DNA of 64,000 nt from an uncultured cyanobacterium (GCA_963706595.1 OY970166.1:4544001-4608000); one strand, 5' to 3'. Numbered from the stretch's first letter, positions 29,226-44,645 are shown. Made by a program: numbers and translations. Notes: generated by a model not told the origin, from the sequence alone.

Positions 29226-29416
29226 AGTGAAATATTATATCAGTTATGATCAATTATTTATCCGGCAATTTGCAAGTAAATGAAGTAGATATTTTAGGGA
29301 ACACCAGAAAATAAATTATCCCATCTTGTAGGATTAGCGGGCATCTTTGCCCGCTCCACAATATTTTTTTTGAAATTATATGATTCTATTTTTTCAAAAT
29401 CAATTTAGTTAAGATT

Positions 29417-30481
29417 TTAGAAAAACATAACTTCACCCAATTCAACAAACATTTGTTCAAACATATCATCAGGATCTTGGTGCATCTGGCGCAGATTTAC
29501 CGGACCACAGACGAATTCTTTAATGGTGATTTTCTGCTCTCGAAAATCTTTGACAAAATCGCGGATAGCGGCGATAGTCTTAATTTCAGCTTCCACTTGT
29601 TCCGCCATGCTGCCAATCGGATCTATTCCTTCTTTCGCCGCTTTTCGACAATCAGAAACTATCGCGCCTTCTGGTGTATTTTTAACTGAGCGAAGTTCCT
29701 GCTTTAATGTCTCATATTGAGTTGTGAGAATTTCATTTTGCTGTTCTATTCTAGTGCATTGGCGAGTTAAATCGTCTTCACTGTTACTATCAATAGACTT
29801 GCCTACTTGATGTTGCTGTTCAATTTCCAACAGTCGCGCCAAATCACCTTCTTGGTAGGCTTTGTTAATTTCCTTCATGATTTCGGTATGACGCATTTGA
29901 GTTTCGCCATCTTTTACTTTGTCTGGGTGAAATATTTCGGCTAAACTTAAAAATGTTTGCCGAATTTTTCTGGCGGTATCAGATTTGTTTCCCGAAGAAA
30001 AGTCTAGATCCTGTGACGCTTCTTGATATTGACTGTGTTCTTCTCTATGTTTACCTGAAAAATCATCTTCTGGCTGATTATCTTCAAATAAGTCGTCTAA
30101 TTCTGTGTCCTCATCTTCTGAATGTTTTTTGGGTTTGGGACTGATAATTCTGGCTATTTGGAGTTGATAGTAAATTCCTTCAATATCTTTTCTGCTCTGC
30201 TTACCCAATTTTCTTAAAGTCAAGATTTCATCAAACAGAGTATGAATTTCTCGGTCGATATCTACCAATTTTCGGAACTTGGGATTACATCGATTAAATA
30301 TATCTGCGGCTAAGGAACGCATCTGTTCGACAAAATTGTTCAGTTCAGTCCGTTTCCTCTTAATTTGTTTCAATAGCCACTGGTGTTCTTTATCTAAAGT
30401 CTCTAGCCGGATATGGAGAGACGAAAGCGCCAGTGTGGTTGTATTTGGGGACTGGGATGAAGATGTTGATTTTCGCGGCAT
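29417..30481 (-). CDS. Coiled-coil protein with a J-domain
   Basis: FLSLAEIFHPDK...MKEINKAY (HPD motif). Confidence 0.85.
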   Translation of the reverse strand: MPRKSTSSSQSPNTTTLALSSLHIRLETLDKEHQWLLKQIKRKRTELNNFVEQMRSLAADIFNRCNPKFRKLVDIDREIHTLFDEILTLRKLGKQSRKDIEGIYYQLQIARIISPKPKKHSEDEDTELDDLFEDNQPEDDFSGKHREEHSQYQEASQDLDFSSGNKSDTARKIRQTFLSLAEIFHPDKVKDGETQMRHTEIMKEINKAYQEGDLARLLEIEQQHQVGKSIDSNSEDDLTRQCTRIEQQNEILTTQYETLKQELRSVKNTPEGAIVSDCRKAAKEGIDPIGSMAEQVEAEIKTIAAIRDFVKDFREQKITIKEFVCGPVNLRQMHQDPDDMFEQMFVELGEVMFF

Positions 30482-30620
30482 AAAACAGGCCAGTCTGAAT
30501 AAGTTGACATCTTATACAGATCCTACCGCCAAAAGATTAAGTTTAATCAGTTAATCCAGGCGATCGCATGGGTCAAAATTGCGGGAAACTAAAAGCAGAT
30601 CATGAAGAGAGGAGAACCTA

Positions 30621-30977
30621 ATGAGCTGGACTAAAGTTCTTGCAGCTGATGCACTTGCGCCAAATGGCAGACAAGTGGTAAAAGTTGGCACACGAAAAAT
30701 TCTGCTTGTCAACCACGAAAGTCAACTTTATGCTGTCGATAATACCTGCCCTCATTTAAAAATGCCCATGAAAAATGGGAAAATTACCGAAAGTGGGGCA
30801 ATTGTTTGTCCTATACATCGTAGTGCTTTTGACTTAAGTACTGGGGAAGTACAAGACTGGTGTCCTTGGCCGCCTGTTGTAGGTAAAGTACTTTCAAAGA
30901 TTTCACCGGAGAAGAAACTACCAGTGTTCCCTGTGCGTGTGGAAGAAGGTAGTATTTGGATTGATTTAGAGGAATAG
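30621..30977 (+). CDS. Rieske [2Fe-2S] ferredoxin-like protein
   Basis: CPH...CPIH ligands. Confidence 0.92.
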   Translation: MSWTKVLAADALAPNGRQVVKVGTRKILLVNHESQLYAVDNTCPHLKMPMKNGKITESGAIVCPIHRSAFDLSTGEVQDWCPWPPVVGKVLSKISPEKKLPVFPVRVEEGSIWIDLEE

Positions 30978-31162
30978 TAGCCTCTAGTAAAAGAGGCAGG
31001 GGAGCAGGGTGTGGGGGGCAGGGGGGAAGACTGAGACGGAGCTTGTACCCCTTCCCCTCTGCCTCTTCGGTGAGGCTAGCAAAAGCGATCGCTTGCCCTC
31101 TTTCCCTTCTAAGCCAGTAAATTTAGTCATCACATCAGGTTGCTATAGTGAATCCCCAATAG

Positions 31163-31381
31163 TCAATCAGCAGACTTAGCAGTTTTTATACCCTCAAGCT
31201 TCTCTATCCGGTAATTCTGGATTTCATTCTGCGCCACCACTTCACTTCTAAGTAATTTGATTTCAGATGTCATATCAGAAACACGGTTGCCCATACTAAA
31301 ACCACCAGTAATCAAATAGAGTCCTGATTGGGTGGTTATGGTCAAGACTGTGATCAGCATGGCTAATCGTTCGGCGGTCAT
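31163..31381 (-). CDS. Small hydrophobic plus coiled-coil protein of the element
   Basis: 72 aa; hydrophobic N-half, coiled-coil C-half; overlaps the stop of the upstream gene by 4 bp. Confidence 0.7.
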   Translation of the reverse strand: MTAERLAMLITVLTITTQSGLYLITGGFSMGNRVSDMTSEIKLLRSEVVAQNEIQNYRIEKLEGIKTAKSAD

Positions 31382-31701
31382 GGTAAAACCTTTTTAATTA
31401 TTAAGCTGGTTCTTGCCAGGTAAAAATTAGGGAAGAATTGCAGCTTAAATTTACCCGGCTGGGGAAAATCAAAGAACTGGTCGCCAAACCTCAAAATTTG
31501 AGAATTGGCAACCGGCTTATTTGGTAAGTCCCACAAAATTTGCTCAATCCTGCCAGCACTTTTGTAATTTCTGGTAGGTCGAGCCTTGAGAACAACAATT
31601 AATTTGCTCTCATCTTCAGTAAATAAATATGGAATGAGTACAGAATTTAATGGTTTTAAATCAAATCGATACTCATTACCAAACACGAACTGAGTTTCCA
31701 T
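31378..31701 (-). CDS. Hypothetical protein of the element
   Basis: 107 aa; abuts both neighbours in a compact operon. Confidence 0.75.
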   Translation of the reverse strand: METQFVFGNEYRFDLKPLNSVLIPYLFTEDESKLIVVLKARPTRNYKSAGRIEQILWDLPNKPVANSQILRFGDQFFDFPQPGKFKLQFFPNFYLARTSLIIKKVLP

Positions 31702-32118
31702 TTACTTTTTAGCAAGTGAATAAGTTCTACCATGCGGCGAGACGAAACTAGTAGGCTTTTTACTTGCGTTTCCCAAGAATTTCTTAATACTACTAATGGT
31801 AGCGCTGGCAGGAACGGGGACACTTAAGTATTTAACTGCCGTTCCCTTTTTGCTAGCTGCCGATGAATTAGTTCCAGGTAAAGGAACTTTAATGCGTTTA
31901 GCGCCAACGCTCCCTCGAACAGCAATCGTTGACTGTTTTTTTGAGCCTTTAGCTGCCTTTCTAGTAACAGTTGCGTCAGGGACGATTTTAAAGCCCAGTT
32001 TTTCAGCTACAGACCGCAGCATATAAACGTATACCGATTTCGCCCCTTGCCCTCGTCCTTGTCCGGATTCAAATAAAACCGTTGCTCGTGGTCCAATCTT
32101 TTTTCGTTGTGTTGCCAT
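31702..32118 (-). CDS. Highly basic (Lys/Arg-rich) protein, possibly DNA-binding
   Basis: 138 aa, rich in K/R/S/A; GGAG RBS upstream. Confidence 0.75.
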   Translation of the reverse strand: MATQRKKIGPRATVLFESGQGRGQGAKSVYVYMLRSVAEKLGFKIVPDATVTRKAAKGSKKQSTIAVRGSVGAKRIKVPLPGTNSSAASKKGTAVKYLSVPVPASATISSIKKFLGNASKKPTSFVSPHGRTYSLAKK

Positions 32119-32147
32119 TCAATTGCTCCAATGCTTAGTAATGGTTT

Positions 32148-33167
32148 TTAGAGATAATCAATTGCGATGATCACAACGTCACCATTGCCGGCGGCTTCAG
32201 AGGTAAAAGGAATATTTGCGCTGATAGTGGCGACTCCAGCTTCCAGGTCGAATTGGACCTGAACGTTGTCCGGCTGGGAATCAGTGGGAACCACAAGTTT
32301 TTCACTAGCAGCCAACAAAGTAGAAATTTCAATGAAGGCTTCCATGATAGTACTAGACTTTAGATCACCGCCGCCATTGACAAAACCAGAATAAGTAGAA
32401 CCCAAGTAATCTTGTGCAACAATTTTGGTAGAACCATCTGTTTGTGCAGTTGCAATAATAGGAATTGTTGCTGCAACTGAAATAGTTCCAGTGTCGAACG
32501 AAACGGTGGTAGCTAGGTTTCTTCGTGGGGTTAGTCCTGGGTTAGCTCCATTCCGAGCTTGTTCTGCCGCATCCATAGCCCTGGCCACTTCAAAGAATGC
32601 CGATGGAATTTGTGTAGCGTTTAAAGTTCCCGCAGTTCCTGGGTCAAATGTACTCATTCGTTCCTCGCTGTAAAAAATGTAGTAACCGTATTTGTAATCA
32701 GTTGTAGCCCGGAATTGTCCCAAATTGGCGGGGACAAACCAATCTAGATTCTTTGGGCTTAAGGTCGAAGAACCCACCGCAGTTAAAGAGACTGAACCGG
32801 GAATAAATAACTTATTCTGCCGAAATACTAAATTAAATGCGGATTTCGAGAAAAAATCTTGAATTGGTGGTGGTACATTATCAATTACTTCCTGCCAGTC
32901 AATGCTTGCAGTTTTTCCATTGGGGAATGTAATCGATGGGGCAGACTGGCTTTTGTTAGAACTTTTAGTTTTGACTATAGGAGTCTTAGGGAGTAAAATA
33001 TACCAATTTCGTTTCCATTTGTAAGCTATAGCTATCCCTTTCTTTAGCAGTCTCTTGAATAGCTTTAATAAATAAGTGTCTGCAAAATTGGTTATTTTAG
33101 CGAGGTCAGATAATTTAATTGCTAAATGCCCATTGATAACATAAATTTCAAATAGTTCTACCCTCAT
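32148..33167 (-). CDS. Element protein: basic N-terminal part in frame with an internally duplicated, structural-protein-like C-terminal domain (internal start at about 32657)
   Basis: 339-aa ORF; GAGG RBS precedes internal MSTFDPG; two repeats each ending in DYL. Confidence 0.7.
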   Translation of the reverse strand: MRVELFEIYVINGHLAIKLSDLAKITNFADTYLLKLFKRLLKKGIAIAYKWKRNWYILLPKTPIVKTKSSNKSQSAPSITFPNGKTASIDWQEVIDNVPPPIQDFFSKSAFNLVFRQNKLFIPGSVSLTAVGSSTLSPKNLDWFVPANLGQFRATTDYKYGYYIFYSEERMSTFDPGTAGTLNATQIPSAFFEVARAMDAAEQARNGANPGLTPRRNLATTVSFDTGTISVAATIPIIATAQTDGSTKIVAQDYLGSTYSGFVNGGGDLKSSTIMEAFIEISTLLAASEKLVVPTDSQPDNVQVQFDLEAGVATISANIPFTSEAAGNGDVVIIAIDYL

Positions 33168-35920
33168 GATTTCTTTTTATCTTTATCTCTCAAAGACAAA
33201 CTCCAAGTAGGCATATTATCTTTCTGCCCAGTTTTGAAGAAATGCACTCTAACCGGAACTACACGAACTTGTTTGTAGACTCCAGGGCGTTCGCCAATCT
33301 TGGGCGGTTGAATGTCTTTTAGGTATTTAGGGGCAATGTATGCTTTGAAAGCATTAATTACCCTCGTACATTCCGTCTTACTTTTCGCATTGATAATTAC
33401 TTTTGAATTATCATTAAGAACCAGAATTCCTTCAAAGTTTCCTTTTTCATATTGAGGAAATTTAGGCTTGAAATCCTTTCCTTTATTGTAGTGAGGAATT
33501 GTTATAGCCCATCGACTGCGACCAATTTTACCATCTTCAAAAACCTCAGCGTATTGAATGACTAACTGCGGACGCTGAAAAACTCGCACTTGCCACCACT
33601 CAGGAGTCACTAAATAGGAATCTTCATTATTTTTAGCTTCACATAATTTTGTGTTAGCCTTAGCCATCTCGGCATAAGAATTGCGAACTTTATTTATTTC
33701 ATTTCCTGTGGAGGTTGCCAAAACTTTGATTGTTATTTCCTTAGTTTCAGGTGTCCATACACCATCGCTTTCAGTACAAAGAATAGTATCAACTTTTATC
33801 TCTACCCAAGAAATATTAGAGGTGCATCGCTGTACTTGAGTACTAGTTTGATTCACAACATTAGTCAAACTATTGACTTGGTTATTAGTTGCATTGGTAA
33901 CGTTGGTCAGATTAGTGACTTGGTTATTAGTTGCATTGGTAACGTTGGTCAGATTAGTGACTTGGTTATTAGTTGCATTGGTAACGTTGGTCAGATTAGT
34001 GACTTGGTTATTAGTTGCATTGGTAACGTTGGTCAGATTAGTGACTTGGTTATTAGTTGCATTGGTAACGTTGGTCAGATTAGTGACTTGGTTATTCGTT
34101 GCGTTGGTAACGTTGGTCAGATTAGTGACTTGGTTATTAGTTGCATTGGTAACGTTGGTCAGATTAGTGACTTGGTTATTCGTTGCGTTGGTAACATTGG
34201 TCAAGTTGCTGACTTGGTTATTAGTTGCGTTGGTAACATTGGTCAAGTTGGTGACTTGAGTACCAAGTTTTGTAATATTTTGATTTGCATTATTAACTAT
34301 ATTTCCAGTATTTATAACTGTTGGTCTGAGAGCGGTGACAGCACTAGCAGTAGCCAATGAAGTAGTATTTAGTGCCACAGCCTGACCTTGTAAAGCTGCT
34401 ACTTGTCCCTGTAAAGCTGCTACTTGTCCTTGCAAAGCAAATACTTGAGTTGTGACAGGAACGATGGCCGCAGTTTGCGCAACCGTAGCTAGTGGCGATG
34501 CCTGATACCACATATTTAAGCCTTCAGGAAAGCATTTACCATTTGTCATTTCCTGGCATAATGCTTCCTGCATTGCGCTAGGCAATGCGTCTGTTTTTAG
34601 CCGAATATTATTGCTCAATACCTCTACGTTGGTTATTTTTGATTGCAAAACACCCAAAGCACCAAATATACCAGCTAATTCTGCCATATTAAATTTGCCA
34701 TCCTTACCACGCTGACCAGTCAAACCACGCTGACCAGTCAAACCACGTTCTCCAGTCAAACCACGCTGACCAGTCAAACCACGTTCTCCAGTCAAACCAC
34801 GCTGACCAGTCAAACCACGCTGACCAGTCAAACCACGCTGACCAGTCAAACCACGCTGACCAGTCAAACCACGTTCTCCAGTCAAACCACGCTGACCAGT
34901 CAAACCACGCTGACCAGTCAAACCACGTTCTCCAGTCAAACCACGCTGACCAGTCAAACCACGCTGACCAGTCAAACCACGCTGACCAGTCAAACCACGT
35001 TCTCCAGTCAAACCACGCTGACCAGTCAAACCACGTTCTCCAGTCAAACCACGCTGACCAGTCAAACCACGCTGACCAGTCAAACCACGCTGACCAGTCA
35101 AACCACGCTGACCAGTCAAACCACGTTCTCCAGTCAAACCACGCTGACCAGTCAAACCACGCTGACCAGTCAAACCACGTTCTCCAGTCAAACCACGCTG
35201 ACCAGTCAAACCACGCTGACCAGTCAAACCACGCTGACCAGTCAAACCACGTTCTCCAGTCAAACCACGCTGACCAGTCAAACCACGCTGACCAGTCAAA
35301 CCACGTTCTCCAGTCAAACCACGCTGACCAGTCAAACCACGCTGACCAGTCAAACCACGCTGACCAGTCAAACCACGCTGACCAGTCAAACCACGCTGAC
35401 CAGTCAAACCACGCTGACCAGTCAAACCACGTTCCCCCTGAAGTCCTCGCGGTCCGGGGATAGCTTTTGCTCTTAGTGCCGATTCAGCCGTAGCTAATGC
35501 TTGATTGGCAGTATTTTTAATGGGTAAAAGTAATCCCAGCACGCGAGAAATATCAGCCCCAAGCGCTGATAAACCACGCTCTACAGCATCAATTCTCGCC
35601 CCTAGTACTTGCAGTGCTGCAATTGATGCCAAGATTCCCGTAATAGTAAATGCTAATGCGGCGACCTTAGTCGCGGCGGCGGCGGCGGCGGCGGCGGCTC
35701 CCTTGGCGATTGCTTCTATAGCGAGAAATTTTATTGCCAGCCCTGCGATCGCAGCTGCTATTAATTGCTCGGTACGAGGCATGATTAGAGCCTCAGCCCC
35801 GGCTATGGAAGATTGGATAATTTGAGGTTTTTCACTCTTCAGAACATACTTTCCATCCAGGGCGGCGATCGCCGCACTCAAAGCAGCAATTTCGCCCGAT
35901 ATTTCGTTACAAGAACTCAC
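33164..35920 (-). CDS. Collagen-like / coiled-coil fibre protein (spike or tail-fibre-like)
   Basis: Ala-rich hydrophobic N-terminus, 40 x GLTG(Q/E)R, ALQGQVA repeats, about 9 x NQVTNLTNVTNATN, globular basic C-domain. Confidence 0.85.
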   Translation of the reverse strand: MSSCNEISGEIAALSAAIAALDGKYVLKSEKPQIIQSSIAGAEALIMPRTEQLIAAAIAGLAIKFLAIEAIAKGAAAAAAAAATKVAALAFTITGILASIAALQVLGARIDAVERGLSALGADISRVLGLLLPIKNTANQALATAESALRAKAIPGPRGLQGERGLTGQRGLTGQRGLTGQRGLTGQRGLTGQRGLTGQRGLTGERGLTGQRGLTGQRGLTGERGLTGQRGLTGQRGLTGQRGLTGERGLTGQRGLTGQRGLTGERGLTGQRGLTGQRGLTGQRGLTGQRGLTGERGLTGQRGLTGERGLTGQRGLTGQRGLTGQRGLTGERGLTGQRGLTGQRGLTGERGLTGQRGLTGQRGLTGQRGLTGQRGLTGERGLTGQRGLTGERGLTGQRGLTGQRGKDGKFNMAELAGIFGALGVLQSKITNVEVLSNNIRLKTDALPSAMQEALCQEMTNGKCFPEGLNMWYQASPLATVAQTAAIVPVTTQVFALQGQVAALQGQVAALQGQAVALNTTSLATASAVTALRPTVINTGNIVNNANQNITKLGTQVTNLTNVTNATNNQVSNLTNVTNATNNQVTNLTNVTNATNNQVTNLTNVTNATNNQVTNLTNVTNATNNQVTNLTNVTNATNNQVTNLTNVTNATNNQVTNLTNVTNATNNQVTNLTNVTNATNNQVNSLTNVVNQTSTQVQRCTSNISWVEIKVDTILCTESDGVWTPETKEITIKVLATSTGNEINKVRNSYAEMAKANTKLCEAKNNEDSYLVTPEWWQVRVFQRPQLVIQYAEVFEDGKIGRSRWAITIPHYNKGKDFKPKFPQYEKGNFEGILVLNDNSKVIINAKSKTECTRVINAFKAYIAPKYLKDIQPPKIGERPGVYKQVRVVPVRVHFFKTGQKDNMPTWSLSLRDKDKKKS
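33875..34260. repeat. 42-bp coding tandem repeat, about 9 copies
   Basis: GACTTGGTTATTAGTTGCATTGGTAACGTTGGTCAGATTAGT unit, encoding a 14-aa double heptad. Confidence 0.95.
34709..35428. repeat. 18-bp coding tandem repeat, 40 copies (collagen Gly-X-Y)
   Basis: ACGCTGACCAGTCAAACC / ACGTTCTCCAGTCAAACC units; 720 bp. Confidence 0.97.
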
Positions 35921-36277
35921 TCATTTAATCCCCGCGATTTGTGCGCGCAATGCCGACAATTCATTGAAAATACGCTTGCAATCCAAGCAGCAATCGCCGC
36001 AGTCCAGGTTATTAGGCGGGCAAGGCGATTCACACTCTGTACAGCTACCAGAGGTATTTCCGGATATTGGAGCGCTAGTTCTTGCTTCGGATAAGCTCTG
36101 AGTACCGCTCCGATAGTAATACCAATGAGCCACTTGCCGGACTCCATCTACTATCAGATGGTATCCCAGTCCATTGAAGGAGTAAGATGCGGCATATCCA
36201 CAAGCAAAATGCTCGTAATAAGCATCATTATTGACACCTTGTCCTGAAAATCGCCAGCATTTCTTAGCCGCCGCCAT
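35921..36277 (-). CDS. Cys-rich hypothetical protein of the element
   Basis: CTECESPCPPNNLDCGDCCLDC followed by a short coiled coil; translationally coupled to both neighbours. Confidence 0.72.
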   Translation of the reverse strand: MAAAKKCWRFSGQGVNNDAYYEHFACGYAASYSFNGLGYHLIVDGVRQVAHWYYYRSGTQSLSEARTSAPISGNTSGSCTECESPCPPNNLDCGDCCLDCKRIFNELSALRAQIAGIK

Positions 36278-36630
36278 TAGTAATCATTCGGATCGCGAAC
36301 GTTGTCCGTGGATGGTTTCCACAAGTTAATCGTTATGGGGTCGTTTCTGTATTCAATTGCGGGTTCACCCCGTTGGGTGATATTTGAAAATCCATCTTCA
36401 AGCACAATTGACTGCTCAAGATTAGTCTCAAAGTTAGCTGGTGATAAATAAGCTTTAGCACCCAAAACAATACTGACTAAATGTCCTTCAGCTGTTGCCG
36501 TTTCTGGAGTCGTCAACCCAGATGCCACTAACGCACTATCGGGAATGAATAACCCTGCCTCTGGTGCTGGGTGTGTCACCGCTAAACGTACTGCCCCAAT
36601 GCCAAAAATTTGAGGGATGGTTGGTTCCAT
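36277..36630 (-). CDS. Hypothetical protein, first gene of the leftward structural-type operon
   Basis: 117 aa; stop overlaps the next start (TAATG). Confidence 0.75.
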   Translation of the reverse strand: MEPTIPQIFGIGAVRLAVTHPAPEAGLFIPDSALVASGLTTPETATAEGHLVSIVLGAKAYLSPANFETNLEQSIVLEDGFSNITQRGEPAIEYRNDPITINLWKPSTDNVRDPNDY

Positions 36631-36671
36631 GAATCTTTATCAATATTGTTAATACATAATTAATAATTCAA

Positions 36672-36755
36672 TACATCAATGATGTAAACTTCCACTTTTA
36701 TGTAAAACTGGAACAATTATTAATACGCTCAAACTATTGGCACTACTGGGTTTGA
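36672..36755. promoter_or_regulatory. Cluster of inverted repeats upstream of the tyrosine recombinase (candidate res/operator site)
   Basis: TACATCA-a-TGATGTA (36672-36686); TTCCACTTTTA-tg-TAAAACTGGAA (36690-36713); TCAAAC...GTTTGA. Confidence 0.5.
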
Positions 36756-36831
36756 TGGCTACACTAATGATATCTGAAATATCAAATATTCCAGATTAAC
36801 CAATTAGGATGGTTAAAGATGAAGTGATTTT

Positions 36832-37413
36832 ATGAAAAACAACAGGCATGGACAAGCTGAAATTTTAACTAATTCGGAATTTTATAAAATTCGCCAACAC
36901 ATTAAAAGTAAAAAATATAAATTACTTCTTGACCTGGCGTGGTACACGGGGGAGAGGTGGGGCGCAATTACAAAATTAAAAGTTGAAGATGTCTATAATT
37001 CTGATGGTAGCCCTAGATGTGAGATTACTTTTCGTGCTGCCACACGCAAAGCCGCGCCAGACGGAGTAAGAAAAACTAGACAGTTACCAGTTCATACTGT
37101 TCTGGAAGAGTCGTTATTATCCTACAAGCCGGAATTTAACTCTGTTTGGTTGTTCCCGTGTCGGGATGGGTTGAAGCCGATTAGCTTCAAATGGGCAGAT
37201 TTGATTTTTCGCACTGCCGTAGAAAATGCTGGACTAGCCACCAAGGGGATTAGTACCCATAGCACCCGCCGGACTTTCATTACCAAACTGCACAGGCAAG
37301 GCACAGATTTGTACACAATAAAGAAAATTACAGGACACCAAGATTTTAAATCACTAGAAAAATACGTAGAAATTGATTGCGATCGCGTCAAAGGCGCTAT
37401 CAACACATTGTGA
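36832..37413 (+). CDS. Short tyrosine recombinase (catalytic domain only, resolvase-like)
   Basis: TGER, HSTRRT, TGHQ, KY: the R-H-R-H-Y residues are present; 193 aa. Confidence 0.92.
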   Translation: MKNNRHGQAEILTNSEFYKIRQHIKSKKYKLLLDLAWYTGERWGAITKLKVEDVYNSDGSPRCEITFRAATRKAAPDGVRKTRQLPVHTVLEESLLSYKPEFNSVWLFPCRDGLKPISFKWADLIFRTAVENAGLATKGISTHSTRRTFITKLHRQGTDLYTIKKITGHQDFKSLEKYVEIDCDRVKGAINTL

Positions 37414-37495
37414 TATATTTGTACTAGTAAACTGGCTGATAAGATGCACCCCTGAATGAGGAAATATGGTCTAGCGCGTAGACCATACCTTTTTT

Positions 37496-38365
37496 TCAAA
37501 GCTTGTAACCATTCATGCCAAAACCACCGCGAATGAAGTTTTTAATTTCACTCGGCGATTTACCCTGCGCAATCGCACTCTCAACCATCTGCTTTCTATC
37601 AATGGCCATCGGATTTTCATAATTTCCCCCAGGAATATGGATGTGATGAATCCCACGCACATAGTAGCAATACCGGAAATACCAGTGCTTTACACCTGAA
37701 CGCTTAACATAATATTCCTCAACCCATTGGTTATTACGTTGTTCTGGAAGAGTAGGAGTGTGCGGTTGTAAATCTTGTTCTGGAAGTTCTGGAAAAGGAA
37801 GAGTGAGTTCTATAAAATCACCATCGTTAAAGTCTGACTCTTCCAGAACATCGTCCAAAGCACGGGACATCATTTCATCCCGGTCAGGTGGCGGAACTCT
37901 CTCACCTGGGTAAGTTTCATTTATGAACTCAATCGCGTCAAGTTCAGCATCCAAATGGGTGTTGTAGTTGCCCTGGAAAGTTCCACAGAGCAGGTAGTCA
38001 TCGTAGACAGTCCATTGAATTTGGTTGTTAGGTAATTTAAAAAACTTGCAAGTATAACCACGGTAATTCTTCTGCCACCGATGCTTTTCATCAGATGTCG
38101 TAGTGTCTACATTAGGTTCTTCCAGAACACTGAATCCTTCTGGCATCGGAAACCGTGACTGCCAATCACTAAACCGCAATTCAAACTCTGCAAGTGAATC
38201 ACAATCGTCTGGCTCTGGTGGTTCTTGGGAATCGTCGTAAAAAAGTGTGAGTTGACCGTTCTCATCTCTTCCAGAAAACTCAGCGTCTAGTATTACTTCA
38301 TCCCAAAAAGGATCATGAACAGTCTTGACGGTGGTGTACTGCTCAACGTCGAATAATAGTGTCAT
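37496..38365 (-). CDS. Hypothetical acidic protein of the element
   Basis: 289 aa; GQLTLF motif; C-terminal WYFRYCY...HIHIPGGN domain. Confidence 0.75.
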   Translation of the reverse strand: MTLLFDVEQYTTVKTVHDPFWDEVILDAEFSGRDENGQLTLFYDDSQEPPEPDDCDSLAEFELRFSDWQSRFPMPEGFSVLEEPNVDTTTSDEKHRWQKNYRGYTCKFFKLPNNQIQWTVYDDYLLCGTFQGNYNTHLDAELDAIEFINETYPGERVPPPDRDEMMSRALDDVLEESDFNDGDFIELTLPFPELPEQDLQPHTPTLPEQRNNQWVEEYYVKRSGVKHWYFRYCYYVRGIHHIHIPGGNYENPMAIDRKQMVESAIAQGKSPSEIKNFIRGGFGMNGYKL

Positions 38366-38368
38366 TGG

Positions 38369-39256
38369 TTATTGGTTATTGGTTATCAGTCGTTGGGGAT
38401 ATCGCTGCATCATTTCTTTGAGGTCGTGGGGATTACCGTCATTGTCATACACCGTCACCCCTCCTGAAATAGCACTGACAATTCCTTGTTGCCTCGCCCA
38501 ATTGAACCAGATGCTCAATTCAGAAGTCACTGTGTTCTTAGGCTTCTCCCCAGTTTTGCAGCTGTTGATGAATAAGCCTGTGGGATTGCTGCACCACCCT
38601 TCATTAACTGCTTCTTTTACACGAGCTACAGCACTGGCGACATTGCCCCAGTATTTCTTGATTACACCCAAGCAAGGTTCTGGGTTAATCCTCAGTGTTC
38701 TTAATTCAATGCAAACCTGCCCAACTTCAGCTTTAGTAGGCGCTGCGGGTGCAATTACCTCATGCTCTTGTTCAATTTCTTGTTCATGATCATCAATGAA
38801 AGTTTCCTCAACAGCAGTGTTGTTTTCTTTTAAACTACTTAAGTTAGTTTTATATGTTGCGACATTTCCAGCAGGTACTTGTGGAATAATTGGCACGTCT
38901 GTGTGAAATATTTCGCATCGTTGAGAATCTACATCTGGCGCGATTCTTTCAAGATTCAACCTGTACTGACTGGCAGTATCTTTGGGAAAGCAGTGTGACG
39001 GCTGCTCATCCAAAATCCCATCAAAGACCAATTCTTTGATGTGCCGGCTGATGGTTGCCCGGCAGTAACCCAGGATGTCCGCTAGGTCTTCAAAGGTAAC
39101 TCTCACCCATTCGTGCTTGTAGTAAAGTTTGCCGTCAAACCAGGACAAGATAGCCGCCTTGCACTTCTGGCGACGGTTGAATGTGGCTAAAAATTCTCTG
39201 AGAATGTTGATAGGGGTATTAATTTCGCCAAAGGTGGCGGAGGTAAAGTTTGTCAC
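38369..39256 (-). CDS. Putative replication initiator with a winged HTH
   Basis: TFEDLADILGYCRATISRHIKELV..GIL HTH; C-terminal NPTGLFINSCK motif typical of phage/plasmid Rep C-termini; GGAGG RBS before the GTG. Confidence 0.65.
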   Translation of the reverse strand: MTNFTSATFGEINTPINILREFLATFNRRQKCKAAILSWFDGKLYYKHEWVRVTFEDLADILGYCRATISRHIKELVFDGILDEQPSHCFPKDTASQYRLNLERIAPDVDSQRCEIFHTDVPIIPQVPAGNVATYKTNLSSLKENNTAVEETFIDDHEQEIEQEHEVIAPAAPTKAEVGQVCIELRTLRINPEPCLGVIKKYWGNVASAVARVKEAVNEGWCSNPTGLFINSCKTGEKPKNTVTSELSIWFNWARQQGIVSAISGGVTVYDNDGNPHDLKEMMQRYPQRLITNNQ

Positions 39257-39324
39257 TGCTAATACCTCCGTGCTAATTGAGTCGAAAATGTGGGAATACT
39301 CATGAGGTAGCTACTGGAGTTGAG

Positions 39325-39594
39325 ATGGGTGATAAATTTGGTTTAAGCCCCAGTGATGTTGTGTCTATGGATGAAGACAAAAGCATTGTTGGAAGCACGT
39401 TTAAAGTCAAGGAAATGCTTCTTAGCCTAGCCGATAGGTCAATCAACGATGACTTTATTACTCAGTGGATAGGGACAGGAGTAGAGTGTGAGGTTTTGAT
39501 CAGTGGGCAGGACTGGCGGAAGGGCAAAGTGAGAATTTCTCTGGAGTTCATTCCTGACCAGCCACTGTCACCACTTGATGATCTGCGGGAATAA
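39325..39594 (+). CDS. KGK domain protein
   Basis: GVECEVL...WRKGKVRISLEF.PD..SPLDDLR. Confidence 0.88.
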   Translation: MGDKFGLSPSDVVSMDEDKSIVGSTFKVKEMLLSLADRSINDDFITQWIGTGVECEVLISGQDWRKGKVRISLEFIPDQPLSPLDDLRE

Positions 39595-39646
39595 CTGAAA
39601 TAGTCACCACGAAAAAACCGTCCTGACCTGTGGTAGGTGGACGGTT

Positions 39647-39979
39647 CTATTCAGAATCTTGAATTTCGGAAATCTGCTTTAACTCTTCAATTCTTTGTCT
39701 CAGAAGGCTTGCTTGTTGTTCATGATATGCCAGCTGTTTGTCAGCCTCACAAATTAGCTGGCTGAGAAGTTTCCCAGCGATTCCTTCAACCGACTCCCCT
39801 CTGAGGACAGATATATCTGACTTGTGGCTATCTTCTCCACAAGCTCTGATCTGGTAAGTCCCATGCTCTGTGCTAACTCCTGAAAAAGTTCCCAAGCATC
39901 GGGATTCACTTTTAAGCTTACCCCCTTGGTTTCCCGTCCTTTGGGCCGTCCCGTTCTCGCCATAGTAATTGTCCTGCAT
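39647..39979 (-). CDS. Possible overlapping coiled-coil ORF
   Basis: 110-aa ORF with C-terminal coiled coil, overlapping the RHH gene in another frame; start uncertain. Confidence 0.4.
   Translation of the reverse strand: MQDNYYGENGTAQRTGNQGGKLKSESRCLGTFSGVSTEHGTYQIRACGEDSHKSDISVLRGESVEGIAGKLLSQLICEADKQLAYHEQQASLLRQRIEELKQISEIQDSE
39754..39963 (-). CDS. Ribbon-helix-helix (CopG-like) repressor
   Basis: KGVSLKV..DAWELFQELAQSMGLTRSELVEKIA; AGGA RBS. Confidence 0.8.
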   Translation of the reverse strand: MARTGRPKGRETKGVSLKVNPDAWELFQELAQSMGLTRSELVEKIATSQIYLSSEGSRLKESLGNFSAS

Positions 39980-39997
39980 AATATTCTGCTTTTAATT

Positions 39998-40085
39998 ATT
40001 GCATATCCAAAAATCCATTAATTAATATTGACACAGGATATCTGGATATGCAATAGTAAGATTGTTGGATTTTTGGATATCCAAT
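39998..40085. promoter_or_regulatory. Divergent promoter region with operator repeats
   Basis: 20-bp inverted repeat with 19/20 match: ATTGCATATCCAAAAATCCA (39998-40017) / TGGATTTTTGGATATCCAAT (40066-40085); third half-site 40043-40055; TTGACA at 40028. Confidence 0.75.
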
Positions 40086-40427
40086 AGCTCCCACCCCACA
40101 CCGGGGATTACCACACGGAGCAAGCACCCACGCCTAGAACTTGCGTGGAACAACCTTGACCAATGACTAATATCAGCGCTTGCGCTTCACCAAAGCGCTG
40201 CAAACTTGTTCTTTCATGGAGGGAAACTTAGACGACAATCATCAAAAAAACCAGGGATAAACACTCTTTTTTCATTTCCCCAGTAAAGGCTAATTACTGG
40301 GGTTTCTCCCTAACACAAGCCAATTTGTCACTGAATTTATAAGGTTTTCTTGGTGGTGTTGCGGCATCACCAAGTTTCTCATAATGTCTGCGTTAATGTC
40401 TGCATTGCACATATAACCATCAAAACT

Positions 40428-40586
40428 ATGAGCTATAAACAAGCCTCACCCTGGGCTGTCTTTAGAGTAGAAGATTTTGGAAATCTTTTACTAACAAGAT
40501 TCCGCAAGCGTAGCGACGCTGATGAATATGCAAAACTTCTCAGAAACAACACACCCTACAAAATTGAGGTGGTATTCGACGTATGA
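40428..40586 (+). CDS. Small hypothetical protein
   Basis: MSYKQASPWAVFR...RFRKRSDADEY...EVVFDV; ATGA overlap with the next gene. Confidence 0.7.
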   Translation: MSYKQASPWAVFRVEDFGNLLLTRFRKRSDADEYAKLLRNNTPYKIEVVFDV

Positions 40587-40867
40587 CACAAAAATCACTA
40601 TTACCCTACGATGGCAATTACGCTTTAATTCACAAGCGGACGCTACTGGTTAACAGTATGGTTTTGACTGCGATGACAGAATTTATCTCGCAAAATTCAT
40701 CTATCACAAGCGAACAACTAGCTCTACTGTTTGGTGAAACTGCTAATAAAATTGTTGCTGCTATGTCCGATGAAACAGTCAATGCCAACGCTTGCGGCTT
40801 AATTTCAAAGTCCATCATAAACAATGGCGTTTCTTCATTTGTTGAATACCATTCCAGTAAAGAATAA
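40583..40867 (+). CDS. Hypothetical protein
   Basis: 94 aa; GAGG RBS; coupled to neighbours. Confidence 0.65.
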   Translation: MTQKSLLPYDGNYALIHKRTLLVNSMVLTAMTEFISQNSSITSEQLALLFGETANKIVAAMSDETVNANACGLISKSIINNGVSSFVEYHSSKE

Positions 40868-40871
40868 CATC

Positions 40872-41240
40872 ATGAAAATTAAAACTATCACTTATCAACG
40901 AGTTCTCAACCTGGGGAATTATGAAAGCAAGCGGTTAGACATGACTATCGAAGTTGACGCAAATCTTGAATTTGCAGAAGAAGAATGCTCCATCCTCATG
41001 GAATCTGTAGAGCGTAAAATTCGAGAAGAATCTGAGGCTTTAATTCTCAATGAAATTAGAGATGCCAGAAAAAAACTGCGTGAAGTTAACAAGGAAATTG
41101 AAGCGGGTAAGCAACTTTTAGCAGAAATAGGAAAGGAATTAAACCCGGACATCGAGCCAGGACTTTCACCTTATGAAATAGCAGAAATCGACCGTAAAGT
41201 TAGAAAGGAGGCATATCTTAACCCTGACGAAGACTTTTAA
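40872..41240 (+). CDS. Phage-type hypothetical coiled-coil protein
   Basis: MKIKTITYQRVLNLGNYESKRL N-terminus followed by a coiled coil. Confidence 0.75.
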   Translation: MKIKTITYQRVLNLGNYESKRLDMTIEVDANLEFAEEECSILMESVERKIREESEALILNEIRDARKKLREVNKEIEAGKQLLAEIGKELNPDIEPGLSPYEIAEIDRKVRKEAYLNPDEDF

Positions 41241-41319
41241 GATTTAGGCGATCGCACAGTTTGGAGGAGTGCGATCGCTTTTCTTCCTTGCCAGGATAAT
41301 GAAACAAATATAACTTAAA

Positions 41320-41555
41320 ACCGCCTGAACGAGCCGGACTAACTCACCGGCGAAACGTGAGCGCTCACGTCGCGGACTGAGTTCGCAGCACATCAACTTA
41401 GGGCTTTGTTAGTGAATTAAGCTCTTGTGGCTTTCCCATCTTCGTAAGCTCGGTTGATGTGTTTTTGTGTCCCCAGTGTTTGCAGCACTGGAAGCTTTGA
41501 GACTGAATTAGGCTCTTTGGCCTTTGGGTGATTCACAAGCTGTAAGACACAATTC
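41320..41555 (+). ncRNA. IS110 bridge RNA: 5' hairpins, target-binding loop (about 41389-41461), donor-binding loop (about 41466-41551)
   Basis: Two similar stem/internal-loop/stem modules whose variable segments match the element junctions; candidate promoter TTGCCA(41288)-17 bp-TAACTT(41311); ends approximate. Confidence 0.85.
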
Positions 41556-41583
41556 ACACACCTACTCTAAGGATGAAAACTGA

Positions 41584-42771
41584 ATGACTAGAATTGTTGG
41601 GTTGGATGTTTCCAAGTCAAGTGTTTCGTGCTGTCTATTGGAGGAAAAGCCAAGGAATCCAAGAGAATTTTACTATGAATACCCCTTCAAAAAGTTTCAA
41701 AGTGATAAATTTGGATTATTGGCATTAATGGCATTGCGGCCAGAAGTTGCAATTCTTGAACCGACGGGAGTGAATTACTCCAAATTCTGGACAGAACATT
41801 TATCTCGTGCCGGGGTAGAAGTTCGCTTCGTAGGACACAAAGAACTCAGGAGTTACCGCGAAAATCACTTGGGACTGCCAGATAAAGATGATGATGCCGA
41901 CTCGTTGGCGCTGGCTTGTTATCAGTTCGACTATGGAAAAGATTTGAGCCGGTTCGTCCGGGTACGCGATCGCTTAATTTCCCGAACGAGGGAAGCAGTG
42001 CTGCGGCTTAGTCATCTTAACCGAATACAATCCCCCATCATCAACCGCATCCGTCAGGATTTGGCATGGCAGTTCCCAGAAGTTGCGCTTGTCCGTTCAA
42101 TTCGGTGTTCTGGAAGAGTGCCTTTACTTTGGGGATGGCTAGCTGGTCAGCGTGAAAGTAAAAAATATGATCGCATTTACGCCACCACCGCAGGATTAGG
42201 ATTAACCGATTCGGTAAGGTTTCACGCGCAGCGCATTTGTAGCTTACAGGCAGAAGAGCAAATTTTAGAAGATGAACTAGCAGAAATTCTCATAGATGAA
42301 CGGTTCACTCGTTACCGTGATATTTTCGCAAATTTCCAGTTTGGGGAGAGACTGCAAGCTGTGATTCTCTCCCAAATTTACCCCTTAGAAAATTTCTTGG
42401 GTGAGGATGGTAAACCAGAAATCAAAATCCGCAAAGGTAGGAAATCTGGTAAACCAACCAAACGCCACCTGTCACTAAGGCGATTTCAGAAAGCTTTGGG
42501 TGTAGCGCCTTCTCAAGAATCAAGCGGCGATATTTCTAAATCTAAAGTTTCCGGTGGATCGGCTTTGTGCCGTCGCGCCCTTTGGCAGTGGGTTTTTAGT
42601 GCAGTTGAACCTGCCAAACGCCGCACGAATCCCATGTTAAAAGAATTGGGAGAATTTCTTGATACCGAGAAATTAGCAGGCAAACCAGTCAAACTGGTAC
42701 GAATGCGAGTAGCTGTTAAAGCTGTAAAGCTGTTATTTAAAATGTTGACTAGTAACGTTATCAGTCAATAA
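41584..42771 (+). CDS. IS110-family (DEDD) bridge recombinase
   Basis: VGLDVSK (D), LEPTG (E), KDDDAD (D,D), C-terminal domain GVAPSQESSG with the catalytic-type Ser; intact 395 aa. Confidence 0.93.
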   Translation: MTRIVGLDVSKSSVSCCLLEEKPRNPREFYYEYPFKKFQSDKFGLLALMALRPEVAILEPTGVNYSKFWTEHLSRAGVEVRFVGHKELRSYRENHLGLPDKDDDADSLALACYQFDYGKDLSRFVRVRDRLISRTREAVLRLSHLNRIQSPIINRIRQDLAWQFPEVALVRSIRCSGRVPLLWGWLAGQRESKKYDRIYATTAGLGLTDSVRFHAQRICSLQAEEQILEDELAEILIDERFTRYRDIFANFQFGERLQAVILSQIYPLENFLGEDGKPEIKIRKGRKSGKPTKRHLSLRRFQKALGVAPSQESSGDISKSKVSGGSALCRRALWQWVFSAVEPAKRRTNPMLKELGEFLDTEKLAGKPVKLVRMRVAVKAVKLLFKMLTSNVISQ

Positions 42772-42872
42772 CACAATGGTGGCGTAGGGAGTCGGTACAA
42801 TACACGTAACAATTACGCCGCCACTATTTTATTAGACTGAAGATGGCAAAGTTATCAGTGGAAAATTAAATC

Positions 42873-43478
42873 ATGCTCGAAAATCGAGACTATACACTCA
42901 TTATCGACAAAAGCGGTAGTATGGCTACCCCAGATCAGAAAGGTGGTAGAACTAGATGGGTATCAGCACAAGAATCTACCCTAGCCTTAGCGAGTAAGTG
43001 CGAGCAATTTGATCCAGATGGCATCACTGTATATTTATTTTCTGGTAGATTCAAGCGCTACGATAATGTTACAGCCGCTAAAGTAACACAAATCTTTAAA
43101 GAAAATGACCCCTCTGGTTCTACAGATTTAGCAGGTGTGTTGAAACACGCCACGGATGATTACTTTCAACGTAAGAATGCGGGTCAAACGAAGCCCAATG
43201 GTGAAATTATTTTGGTAGTTACTGACGGCGAACCGGATGACCGTAAAGCGGTAATGAAGGTAATTATTGAAGCTTCTCGCCGGATGGATAATGATGAGGA
43301 ACTAGGTATTTCCTTCATTCAAGTTGGTACAGATGCACAAGCTACTCGCTTTCTGAAAGTGTTAGATGATGACCTCCAAGGTGCTGGAGCAAAATTTGAT
43401 ATCTGCGACACAATTACAATGGATGATATGGAGGATTTAAGTTTATCGGAAGTGCTACTAAATGCCATTACGGACTAG
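42873..43478 (+). CDS. Single-domain vWA protein
   Basis: IDKSGSM MIDAS, VTDGEPDD, FLKVLDDDL. Confidence 0.9.
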   Translation: MLENRDYTLIIDKSGSMATPDQKGGRTRWVSAQESTLALASKCEQFDPDGITVYLFSGRFKRYDNVTAAKVTQIFKENDPSGSTDLAGVLKHATDDYFQRKNAGQTKPNGEIILVVTDGEPDDRKAVMKVIIEASRRMDNDEELGISFIQVGTDAQATRFLKVLDDDLQGAGAKFDICDTITMDDMEDLSLSEVLLNAITD

Positions 43479-43574
43479 CGACCGCTGCGCGGAAGTCAAA
43501 AGTTAAAAGTCAAAAGTTAAAAGAACTTTTTGAAATGTATCCCTATTTACGCCGTGAATTACTAGCTTAAAAGC

Positions 43575-43982
43575 ATGGATTCTCTTGATAAGCTGCTAGA
43601 TGAACTCAAAGCTGAATATGATCAAACCAAACCCGCAGCATCACAACCCCAGAAAAATTCAGCCAAACCATTTACCCCACAACCACCAAAATCGTTATCT
43701 TTAGTCGATAGCCTTTTGGCAGAAGTTGGGGCTGATTTTGCAGCACAAGATGAAGTGGAGGAGTTTAAAAAACAGCAAGAATTAGCACAGGAAAAAAATC
43801 GACAAGCCCAAATCAAAGCCCAACAAATAGCAGCTTTGAAAGTTGAAGCAGAAACATGGTTGAAAAAATTAGATCCGTTTTCTTCAGAAGGACTTTGGTT
43901 TGAAAGGTTTGCTGAAAGTTACCCTTCAAAATTAGAGGCGGCGATTGAATATTTACAAAGCAACGAATCAACTCAAACTTAA
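43575..43982 (+). CDS. Slr1339-like (salt-stress) protein
   Basis: WLKKLDPFSSEGLWFERFAESYPSKLEAAIEYL C-terminus. Confidence 0.7.
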   Translation: MDSLDKLLDELKAEYDQTKPAASQPQKNSAKPFTPQPPKSLSLVDSLLAEVGADFAAQDEVEEFKKQQELAQEKNRQAQIKAQQIAALKVEAETWLKKLDPFSSEGLWFERFAESYPSKLEAAIEYLQSNESTQT

Positions 43983-43986
43983 CTTG

Positions 43987-44325
43987 CTAGTCGTTGATTG
44001 ACAAAAAGTGTTCAACAGCCCATTTATGCATTGCATAAAGAATTGGGATCAGACTTTTTCCCAAACTTGTCAATGAGTATTCTACCTTTGGGGGGATTTG
44101 TGGATAAACTTCACGATGTACAATACCGTCTTCTTCCATTTCTCGGAGTTGCTGAGTCAGCATTTTTTGGGTAATTCCCGGTAAGCCTCGCTGCAATTCC
44201 CCAAAGCGTTTGGTCTGTGAAATTAATTCTCTAATAATTAAAACTTTCCAACGCCCACCAATTACCTTTAATGTAGTTTCAACTTCGCAAGTGAGCCTGA
44301 TGTCGGTTTTTGCTTCAGCTTTCAT
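43987..44325 (-). CDS. HxlR-family transcriptional regulator
   Basis: [35 protein letters not shown]. Confidence 0.93.
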
Positions 44326-44645
44326 AAGTTAATTTTGAGTAAGTACTGTACTTTTAAGTGCCTACTTTTTCTATTAACTATACTTGATTTAAAGTCTATT
44401 TAGTAACTTTTTAGCAAATTAATTTGGGATGTTTCCTACCCATAAATATGGAGGTGAATGTTAAATTTGACAGCAGGGATTTGGCGGCATATTTAGCAAG
44501 TGGAACATTAGCAAAAATTTAGCGGCTAATTTTTTAAATTCAGAGTAAAAGTAAGTCGATAATCTACAATACCTCTAGAAATTATCTAGAGGTTTTTCTC
44601 AATAGTTCAGATAAGTTTGTTGCCAAAAACTTCGCTTTCAACTAA

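Follow-up and report, generated by a model that had tools for sequence, protein, structure and literature searches.

An 11.7-kb cyanobacterial element with replicon-like cargo, very probably inserted whole by a bridge-RNA-guided IS110 recombinase

How did an 11.7-kb block of DNA ending in an IS110-family recombinase gene come to lie between a Rieske gene and a vWA gene in the genome of a filamentous cyanobacterium? The block lies within a 64,000-nt stretch from an uncultured cyanobacterium (GCA_963706595.1 OY970166.1:4544001-4608000; hereafter the window, with positions counted from its first letter). A first-pass annotation had read it as a phage- or plasmid-like element, apparently integrated by a recombinase whose guide RNA matches both junctions. 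From the junctions, the empty sites of relatives and the covariation of guides with insertion sites, we conclude that window 31153-42841 is very probably one 11,689-bp integrative element, inserted whole through a bridge-RNA-guided IS110 recombinase and carrying replicon-like cargo.

Both junctions can be read in the window. At the left, TGAA (31149-31152) is preceded by ctatag and followed by tccccaat; at the right, TGAA (42838-42841) stands between ttagac and gatggcaaag, and this tetranucleotide is the sole repeat at the element ends. On the host side of the left junction, the left target half ATAGT with the core GAA (31145-31152, + strand) matches the left target guide (LTG) TAGTGAA of the RNA described below. 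The element then begins with the right-donor half TCCCCAAT (31153-31160, + strand), which pairs with the right donor guide (RDG) if one RNA base is bulged. The left-end string GAATCCCCA occurs once in the window, and a left end like it is seen on contig C23 of a related genome, G009, and at 11 of the relatives' loci whose upstream sequence was extended. The element closes with the left-donor half TTAGACT and core GAA (42832-42841, + strand); a right end of the form ...TAGA(C/G)TGAA is present in 27 of 30 related loci scanned. Beyond it, the right target half GATGG (42842-42846, + strand), which pairs with the right target guide (RTG), is host DNA lying 27 nt before the start of the vWA gene, and homology to relatives picks up again at window 42840. 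As a chance control, junction patterns were written from the guides alone (LTG, core and the reverse complement of RDG) and searched with at most one edit in the window and in 300 simulated 64-kb windows. The left-junction pattern matched once in the window, at 31146, and in 2 of the 300 simulations; the right-junction pattern matched once, at 42834, and in 3 of 300. A second copy of TAGACTGAA, at 12823, was set aside as a chance match within an ordinary coding region. The G+C content of the element is not distinguishable from that of its surroundings. Just past the Rieske gene, at 31000-31112, lies a long G-rich/C-rich inverted repeat with only chance-level, miRNA-like Rfam matches; it is probably the terminator of that gene.

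The empty site was sought by comparing window 29400-44400 with 60 relatives (10 same-genus genomes). In all 10 congeners the left flank, which runs to about 30985, adjoins the right one, which starts at about 42840, the Rieske-vWA gap measures 176-361 nt, and the 11.7-kb insertion is absent. The target homologue is uninterrupted in nine of them. In G001 the spacer reads ...GGGTTGCTATAGTGAAGATGGCAAAGTTATCAGTGG, identical at every letter to the 21-nt empty site that the first-pass annotation had predicted, and runs straight on into GATGGCAAAG. Given this base-exact empty site, the 11,689 bp is an insertion with the predicted breakpoints. In the tenth congener, G006 (locus L005, the orthologue of window 30955-42900), the left target half is missing and a right-end-like remnant stands at exactly the same point (...CTACTAGACTGAA joined to GATGGCAAAG, also given as ...ACCACCAATAATCTACTAGACTGAA joined to GATGGCAAAG), which suggests an earlier or independent insertion at the same target followed by deletion.

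A candidate bridge RNA lies upstream of the recombinase gene at 41320-41545 (+ strand; ends approximate), beginning at a conserved AACCGCCTGA. Homologues turned up in 54 of 151 family genomes and yielded 30 loci; after the addition of two more, the alignment comprised 31 upstream regions. A two-loop structure was written on this alignment and compared with versions whose pairing partners were slid by 1-3 columns and with 500 shuffles. In the 31 sequences 88.3% of cells are paired, against 26-50% with slid partners, and changes on both sides of the pair, that is compensatory changes, are found in 24 of 39 pairs. The covariation score is 0.352, against 0.157 when shuffled, and none of the 500 shuffles reaches the observed value. 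Rfam holds no family for this RNA and returned just four chance-level matches. Upstream, a GC-rich hairpin followed by a T-run (41243-41285, + strand), seen by eye, closes the upstream operon; a scan of the sequence did not call it, owing to its long loop. Between this hairpin and the RNA, a possible promoter can also be picked out by eye (TTGCCA at 41288, a 15-nt spacer and TATAAC at 41309).

The two loops carry the guides that the first-pass annotation had read as matching both halves of the target and both element ends. Its guide strings CTTTCCCATCTTC (41431-41443), AGACTGAAT (41500-41508) and TTGGGTGATTCA (41524-41535) are all present, as are its junction strings. The 5' target-binding loop (41389-41461, + strand) holds the LTG TAGTGAA at 41410-41416 and the RTG CCCATCTTC at 41435-41443; in relatives it is hypervariable, save for the GAA that ends the LTG and the TTC in the RTG. 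The 3' donor-binding loop (41493-41541, + strand) holds the left donor guide (LDG) AGACTGAAT at 41500-41508 and the RDG TTGGGTGATTCAC at 41524-41536, and is nearly invariant in 30 of the 31 RNAs (LDG GAGA(C/G)TGAA, RDG GGGTGATTC). The LTG matches the left host flank at 7 of 7 positions, and the LDG matches the right end of the element at 9 of 9. For the RTG, the loop proper pairs with GAAGATGG; the 12/13 match noted earlier extends into the inner stem (GCTT, 41430-41433). Between the RDG and the left end GAATC-CCCAA the match includes one bulged base, and this bulge is family-wide, the RDG reading GAATC(A/T)CCC and the left ends GAATCCCC in every element examined. GAA/TTC is fixed in LTG, RTG, LDG and RDG of 30 of the 31 aligned RNAs; on this alignment the family core is GAA, and the T of TGAA is shared here by coincidence.

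If the RNA directs insertion, its target guides should agree with host DNA wherever the element is found. At the right side, 28 loci with a recognizable right end (...TAGA(C/G)TGAA) were used to match the bases that follow GAA against the RTG of the same locus, with 2000 permutations. The mean match was 4.29 contiguous nt beyond GAA, against 0.59 when permuted, and 0 of 2000 permutations reached the observed value. At least 5 nt matched in 19 loci; the other nine matched over 0-4 nt, some of their right ends being possibly mis-picked. This covariation of guide and right flank identifies the RNA as a bridge RNA as Durrant et al. defined it; its alignment and guide matches show it to have two genuine loops, the 5' one for the target and the 3' one for the donor.

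The left side bears on the size of the mobile unit. None of the 30 loci shows a left end of the form GAATC(N)CCC over a distance of about 1.5 kb ahead of the gene, and no compact copy was seen among them; the genome under study likewise has one copy of the recombinase module and no compact copy. We extended 20 loci to as much as 20 kb upstream and permuted LTGs among loci 5000 times. In 11 of the 20, the locus's own LTG (5 nt plus GAA) stands directly ahead of TCCCCA, 10-18 kb upstream of the gene (10 exact matches and one with a single mismatch); permutation gave a mean of 1.54 and a maximum of 7, and 0 of 5000 reached 11. The conserved left end in these loci is GAA/TCCCCA. Six of the nine negative loci have just 6.5-11 kb of upstream sequence, short of the usual position of the left end. 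In the window, 10.2 kb separate the left end from the RNA downstream of it, and about 10 kb of cargo fills this interval.

The strongest test of the guide/junction logic is an element in G005, whose recombinase is 35% identical to that of the window and whose cargo is syntenic, with the same gene order. Its guides differ from those of the window (LTG TTAGGATGAA, RTG TTAATACTTC, LDG TATCACTGAAT, RDG GGTAGTTC), and its junctions read GACTTAGGATGAA/CTACCAG and CTATACTGAA/GTGTTAAATGG. The target predicted from these guides, TTAGGATGAA/GTGTTAA, is uninterrupted in 10 of 10 congeners, which read GACTTAGGATGAAGT... upstream of the same gene. In G009, the LTG ACAAGAAT of the copy on contig C17 is the junction GGTTACAAGAA/TCCCCAAT on contig C23, at the far end of the cassette, beside a homologue of the 72-aa gene found at the left end in the window; the genes at its two flanks are neighbours in G003, G010, G006 and G004. 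Both flanks of the G009 element (L019:900-1100 and L014:4540-4740) contain stretches of some 150-200 nt that match dozens of places per genome across the genus and look like a family of small repeats resembling miniature inverted-repeat transposable elements, unrelated to the element. Guide and junction agree in 14 elements in all (the window, G005, G009 and the 11 extended loci), which come from several genera and differ in guides and targets, and whose family ranges from about 10.3 to about 19 kb. Because the far left end is matched by the guides, the empty sites lack the whole block and no compact form was found, the mobile unit is the cassette plus the recombinase module, not an IS of 1.5 kb. 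The first-pass proposal that the whole 11,689-bp cassette moves is borne out by these comparisons, and the covariation of guides and junctions at other loci, which that annotation named as a check, is observed.

Joined forms, in which a right end abuts a left end, were sought through the joint TAGA(C/G)TGAATCCCCA. It occurs 20 times in 17 of the 151 family genomes, versus 4 for a reversed control. Among 89 pattern-matched loci from IMG/VR and metagenomes, the joint stands right after an IS110 gene in 10, all of them metagenome contigs; the IMG/VR search gave nine pattern matches, none with element genes, and most of the 119 or more metagenome matches to the joint pattern are chance 16-mers. 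One whole metagenome contig of 13,189 nt (L211) is a circular permutation of the element without host DNA. It carries, in order, the 117-aa gene, the tyrosine recombinase, the 289-aa gene, the IS110 recombinase, the joint and then homologues of the 107-, 138- and 339-aa proteins (43-51% identity). Both contig ends fall within its collagen-like gene with no exact terminal overlap, and its donor guides match the element ends, RDG bulge included, as in the window, G005 and G009. Its gene order is that of either a circle or a tandem array. Tandems do occur: at L088, in G071, two identical copies lie head to tail about 15.4 kb apart. At one locus in G127 (L042/L070), the LTG is the family's own right end, AGACTGAA, and the element sits directly behind the right end of another. 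This LTG explains how tandems originate, and self-targeting of resident right junctions seems to build the arrays.

The recombinase itself (395 aa; 41584-42771, + strand) is an IS110-family DEDD/serine recombinase, scoring 532 bits against NCBIfam NF051857 (transpos_IS110_2; cut-off 180) and 25.0 against Pfam Transposase_20 (cut-off 21.3). In an alignment of 10 homologues, down to 40% identity, D8, E59, D103, D106 and S314-G-D are invariant. The best 80 of its 188 relatives come from Nostoc, Anabaena, Nodularia, Sphaerospermopsis, Dolichospermum, Trichormus, Calothrix, Tolypothrix, Stigonema, Scytonema and Microcoleus.

We propose the following course of events. Recombinase and bridge RNA would release the element in circular form, with ...TAGACTGAA and TCCCCAAT... 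joined; the predicted joint of the 11,689-bp circle reads ...TTAGACTGAA-TCCCCAAT..., and excision would restore ...GCTATAGTGAAGATGGCAAAG. The donor loop would grip the circle joint and the target loop ATAGTGAA/GATGG (predicted target ATAGTGAAGATGG), and strand exchange at the GAA core would put the whole circle in. Each lineage may have been retargeted by mutation of its target loop. The cargo would be a small replicon, with iteron-like repeats inside the 289-aa gene and an initiator-like helix-turn-helix (HTH) protein encoded alongside, and the catalytic-domain-only tyrosine recombinase would act on the episome, in multimer resolution or as a switch, rather than in chromosomal integration.

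What does the cargo hold? Over 21 loci, the core genes are those for the IS110 recombinase (21), the tyrosine recombinase (19), the 289-aa protein (18) and the 117-aa protein (13). The tyrosine recombinase (36832-37413, + strand), which the first-pass annotation does not mention, has 193 aa, is Xer-like and consists of the catalytic domain only (Pfam Phage_integrase 8.7e-16, phrog_216 1.6e-31); it aligns to the C-terminal two thirds of NCBIfam Xer profiles, under their cut-offs. Its homologues in related loci are 37-76% identical, and the genome has a single copy. The 289-aa protein (37496-38365, - strand) has conserved N- and C-terminal parts and a variable middle; its 40 homologues are all cyanobacterial and unannotated, and its model has a predicted local distance difference test (pLDDT) score of 75.5. 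Six copies of TTCTGGAAGAG with at most one mismatch, three forward and then three reverse, span 37100-38276; the window holds 9 copies, against 1.3 expected, a count reached in 0 of 100 shuffles. Comparable clusters, each with its element's own motif, lie in the same gene of 7 of 11 other elements scanned. These repeats are candidate iterons, and we infer from them that the gene may contain the origin. In phage lambda, the origin of replication lies within gene O, which similarly has short-repeat clusters in a variable middle between conserved protein ends; unlike the lambda O protein, the 289-aa protein has no sequence or fold similarity to any initiator. Next to it, a 295-aa HTH protein (38369-39256, - strand) shows a weak likeness to replication initiators (Pfam HTH_Crp_2 9.3e-5, under the cut-off; phrog_678 'replication initiation O-like' 5.4e-5). 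The largest sister element, in G129 (about 19 kb), has at the position of the 289- and 295-aa genes a 794-aa DnaB-like helicase with an AAA_25 domain (L083:10605-12989), and the replication module appears exchangeable.

The remaining cargo consists largely of ORFans. The first gene inside the left end (31163-31381, - strand) encodes a 72-aa protein, hydrophobic at its N-terminus and ending in a coiled coil, which matches no Pfam or PHROGs family and has homologues at the same place in 4 of 21 loci. It is followed by two small open reading frames (ORFs) of 107 and 138 aa (31378-32118, - strand), the latter rich in lysine and arginine, with no family match and with the homologues in L211 mentioned above, and by a 339-aa protein (32148-33167, - strand) of a conserved, cyanobacteria-only family with 75 homologues, all unannotated. 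The 339-aa model (pLDDT 76.1) has no Foldseek match at E <= 0.001 in PDB or BFVD (best VIA Z 4.4), and the protein gave no tblastn match in 50,697 phage records and no usable match in the ESM Atlas. It is unrelated to the protein of some 280 aa that takes its place in sister elements (hhalign probability 0.9%). In 4 of 6 cases examined, a distance of 7-10 kb separates its homologues from an IS110-type gene, in the orientation seen in the window. In L211, G127 and G076 the 107/138/339-aa module accompanies recombinases 35-44% identical to that of the window, which shows the elements to be mosaics of exchangeable modules. In a divergent cassette of G006 (L020), tblastn found three cargo genes and no more, and no gene for IS110.

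Next comes a 918-aa collagen-like protein (33164-35920, - strand; Pfam Collagen 1.5e-45) with about 45 GLTGQR/GLTGER triplet-pair repeats followed by about ten NLTNVTNATNNQVT repeats; the DNA of the collagen repeats yields long spurious ORFs on the opposite strand (33836-34360). A Cys-rich 118-aa ORF and the 117-aa core ORF follow (35921-36630, - strand); no 117-aa homologue was found in IMG/VR. Beside the recombinase module lie small ORFs on both strands (39647-41240), of 110 aa (-) and of 78, 94 and 138 aa (+); their homologues adjoin the bridge RNA on its upstream side in 12 of 29 related loci. The 69 ORFs of four sister elements include Xre-type HTH proteins, collagen or coiled-coil proteins and one DnaB-like helicase; Pfam recognized no family of capsid, portal, terminase, Zot or conjugation proteins among them. 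In the window cargo, too, Pfam, PHROGs, tblastn against phages, the ESM Atlas and two fold searches brought up no gene for a capsid, portal, terminase, Zot-type ATPase or lysis protein. Pfam identified no resistance or plasmid family in the 17 ORFs of the window and the 69 of the sister elements; a plasmid collection was not searched. The first-pass description of the cargo as virus-like, with fibre, replication and regulatory genes, is not supported as it stands. The 'tail fibre' PHROG matches of the 918-aa protein are confined to its collagen repeats, and no virion gene is recognized in a cargo made up mostly of ORFans; the iteron clusters point to a replicon, and 'replicon-like' is, as a guess, better supported than 'virus-like'.

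The identical pair of junctions would also arise in two steps, had a compact IS110 element first entered ATAGTGAA/GATGG and a 10-kb cassette later landed between its left end and the RNA, so that the 11.7 kb never moved as one. An August 2026 preprint by Hu, Xie, Yang and Rubin gives such a history some plausibility, describing, in its main text, large IS110 loci that grow by progressive additions and whose whole-unit mobility falls with size (10.64898/2026.08.14.744561). We nevertheless regard it as very unlikely here, since the same architecture of left end, shared cargo, RNA and recombinase recurs at different guide-matched targets in 13 other elements, one with a 35%-identical recombinase, the cargo genes next to the RNA are conserved in the 12 of 29 loci noted above, and no compact copy was seen in the 30 loci or in this genome. 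Very unlikely, too, is integration by the cassette's own tyrosine recombinase in the manner of a prophage or island, with the IS110 module as a terminal passenger. The enzyme belongs to the Phage_integrase family and is the best conserved of the cargo genes, and one source annotation gives the label DUF4102, an arm-type DNA-binding domain, to a distant relative of the 289-aa protein encoded next to it, a lead that was not confirmed. Yet both junctions are those specified by the four guides and covary with them across loci, TGAA is the only end repeat, the enzyme aligns with the catalytic part of Xer profiles alone, and its gene lies in the middle of the element rather than at an end.

Bridge-RNA-guided integration might instead have acted on cargo that is passively captured DNA, an expanded IS110 locus rather than a virus or an autonomous replicon. 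Such an origin would accommodate the lack of any recognized Rep family or gene for a capsid, terminase or transfer function, the sharing of modules as a mosaic between elements with distant recombinases, and the existence of tandem arrays. We still consider it unlikely: the tyrosine recombinase, the 289-aa gene with its iteron clusters and the 117-aa gene form a stable core across genera, down to 35% recombinase identity, sister elements carry Xre-type repressors and a DnaB-like helicase, and L211 is a host-free circular permutation of the full element. Whole-unit insertion of a replicon-like element is the reading that we retain. It is possible, though short of probable, that these elements go further and form an unrecognized family of self-replicating episomes of heterocystous cyanobacteria, perhaps temperate viruses with wholly novel virion proteins. 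A bridge recombinase would serve as their integrase; the attachment site would be written in the RNA target loop, so that a few point mutations change the host site while donor loop and ends stay fixed; and the tyrosine recombinase and the iteron gene would run the episomal phase.

Several observations weigh against the reading that we retain, or against parts of it. The 12-nt target TAGTGAAGATGG has two more perfect copies in the same genome, both unoccupied (G000:C1:438227-438238 and 3444854-3444865), so that recognition must extend beyond 12 nt or the number of copies must be restricted. The joined right-end/left-end form is not in this genome's assembly. For three of the 20 extended loci (L080, in G145; L085; L088), 17-18 kb of upstream sequence revealed no left end preceded by the locus's LTG; two of them, L080 and L088, hold head-to-tail joints TAGAGTGAA/TCCCCA. 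For G009 the exact empty site could not be demonstrated in G003, G010, G006 and G004, their intergenic DNA being too diverged. As a single RNA, the fold is unremarkable (minimum free energy -76.3 kcal/mol, z only -1.64). A consensus promoter scan upstream of the RNA called none, and since cargo of about 10 kb sets the RNA apart from the left end, a promoter cannot be rebuilt across the circle joint as it is in IS621 (PMC11208160); the RNA would be driven from inside the element. The recombinase scores 25.1 against Pfam DEDD_Tnp_IS110, under the cut-off of 29, and neither its sequence nor the 10-sequence profile matched a solved structure in the PDB, so the catalytic roles of D8, E59, D103, D106 and S314 are putative and taken from the family. 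On the side of the cargo, the replicon reading draws on the repeats and the weak PHROG match of 5.4e-5, a better-supported guess than a virus. The 289-aa fold has no Foldseek match at E <= 0.001, its best VIA Z of 8.0 falling on an uninformative 64-residue alpha/beta domain, and the role given to the tyrosine recombinase, a second recombinase in the element, is a guess.

How far is this arrangement known? Kawai et al. (2005) reportedly dealt with filamentous proviruses carrying a terminal IS110-family transposase. The first-pass annotation knew of no description of the arrangement, and there it has to be corrected. IS110-family transposases lie at one end of the Neisseria Nf and the Thermus filamentous proviruses and are thought to integrate them (PMC7058167, PMC11437467), and the 2026 preprint reports cargo-bearing IS110 loci of up to about 100 kb with flanks matched by their bridge RNAs, shows a 9,177-bp circle and finds plasmid replication functions retained in a few loci (10.64898/2026.08.14.744561). 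Like Neisseria Nf/MDA phage and Thermus phiOH16, Zuza8 and Zuza27, the present element is a probably replicating element in the 8-12 kb range with an IS110-family gene at one end of the integrated form, through which it would integrate and excise at short specific sites; those systems are inoviruses with replication, coat and assembly genes, none of which is recognized here, guide RNAs are not part of the provirus descriptions in the parts of these papers compared, and the host here is a cyanobacterium (PMC7058167, PMC11437467). With the expanded IS110 loci the element shares a size above 2 kb, bounds given by an empty site, LTG and RTG complementary to the flanks and growth in tandem. The main text of the preprint describes a continuum of sizes arising from progressive, mostly plasmid-derived and resistance-rich additions, with declining whole-unit mobility; here, by contrast, a coherent lineage keeps core genes and their order across genera, each copy lies at its own guide-matched site, and a tyrosine recombinase is a second, core recombinase (10.64898/2026.08.14.744561). 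Our comparison covered that main text, from which the words cyanobacteri*, prophage and virus are absent (10.64898/2026.08.14.744561).

Mechanistically the closest comparison is the IS621/IS110 group of Durrant et al. 2024, as set out in the parts of that paper considered here (PMC11208160). A DEDD/serine recombinase, an RNA upstream of its gene with a 5' target and a 3' donor loop, a core included in LTG, RTG, LDG and RDG alike, a donor more conserved than the target and junctions that are target/donor hybrids are common to both (PMC11208160). Unlike IS621, which has a dinucleotide core, the element has GAA and an RDG with one bulged base; it measures 11.7 kb against about 1.3 kb, with about 10 kb of genes between left end and RNA, so that the split promoter rebuilt across the IS621 circle joint cannot drive the RNA here (PMC11208160), and its recombinase is too diverged for a sequence match to solved structures. 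It works like an IS110 element, not like a minimal IS110 insertion sequence of about 1.0-1.6 kb with its left end just upstream of the RNA. In the accessible portions of the literature on IS110 and bridge RNA with cyanobacteria or prophages we found no description of this element family. Large IS110 cargo and IS110-bearing proviruses thus have precedents; what seems new is a cassette-scale cyanobacterial family with covarying guides.

Bridge recombinases are being engineered for insertion of large DNA, and the natural systems studied in depth are minimal insertion sequences. At least 14 related elements of 10-19 kb, each at a different site spelled by its RNA, form a natural comparative data set, offering orthologues and rules for large-cargo insertion: a fixed donor loop, a GAA core, a tolerated RDG bulge and an internally driven RNA. 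They are also an example of integration specificity evolving by guide mutation and a possible genetic tool native to the Nostocales. For the biology of these organisms, they define a family of mobile elements in cyanobacteria, and the 10 kb that such an element carries as cargo encodes almost entirely unknown proteins. Nature, it would probably follow, uses the programmable IS110 bridge recombinase to integrate large, probably self-replicating DNA, in a family that is widespread.

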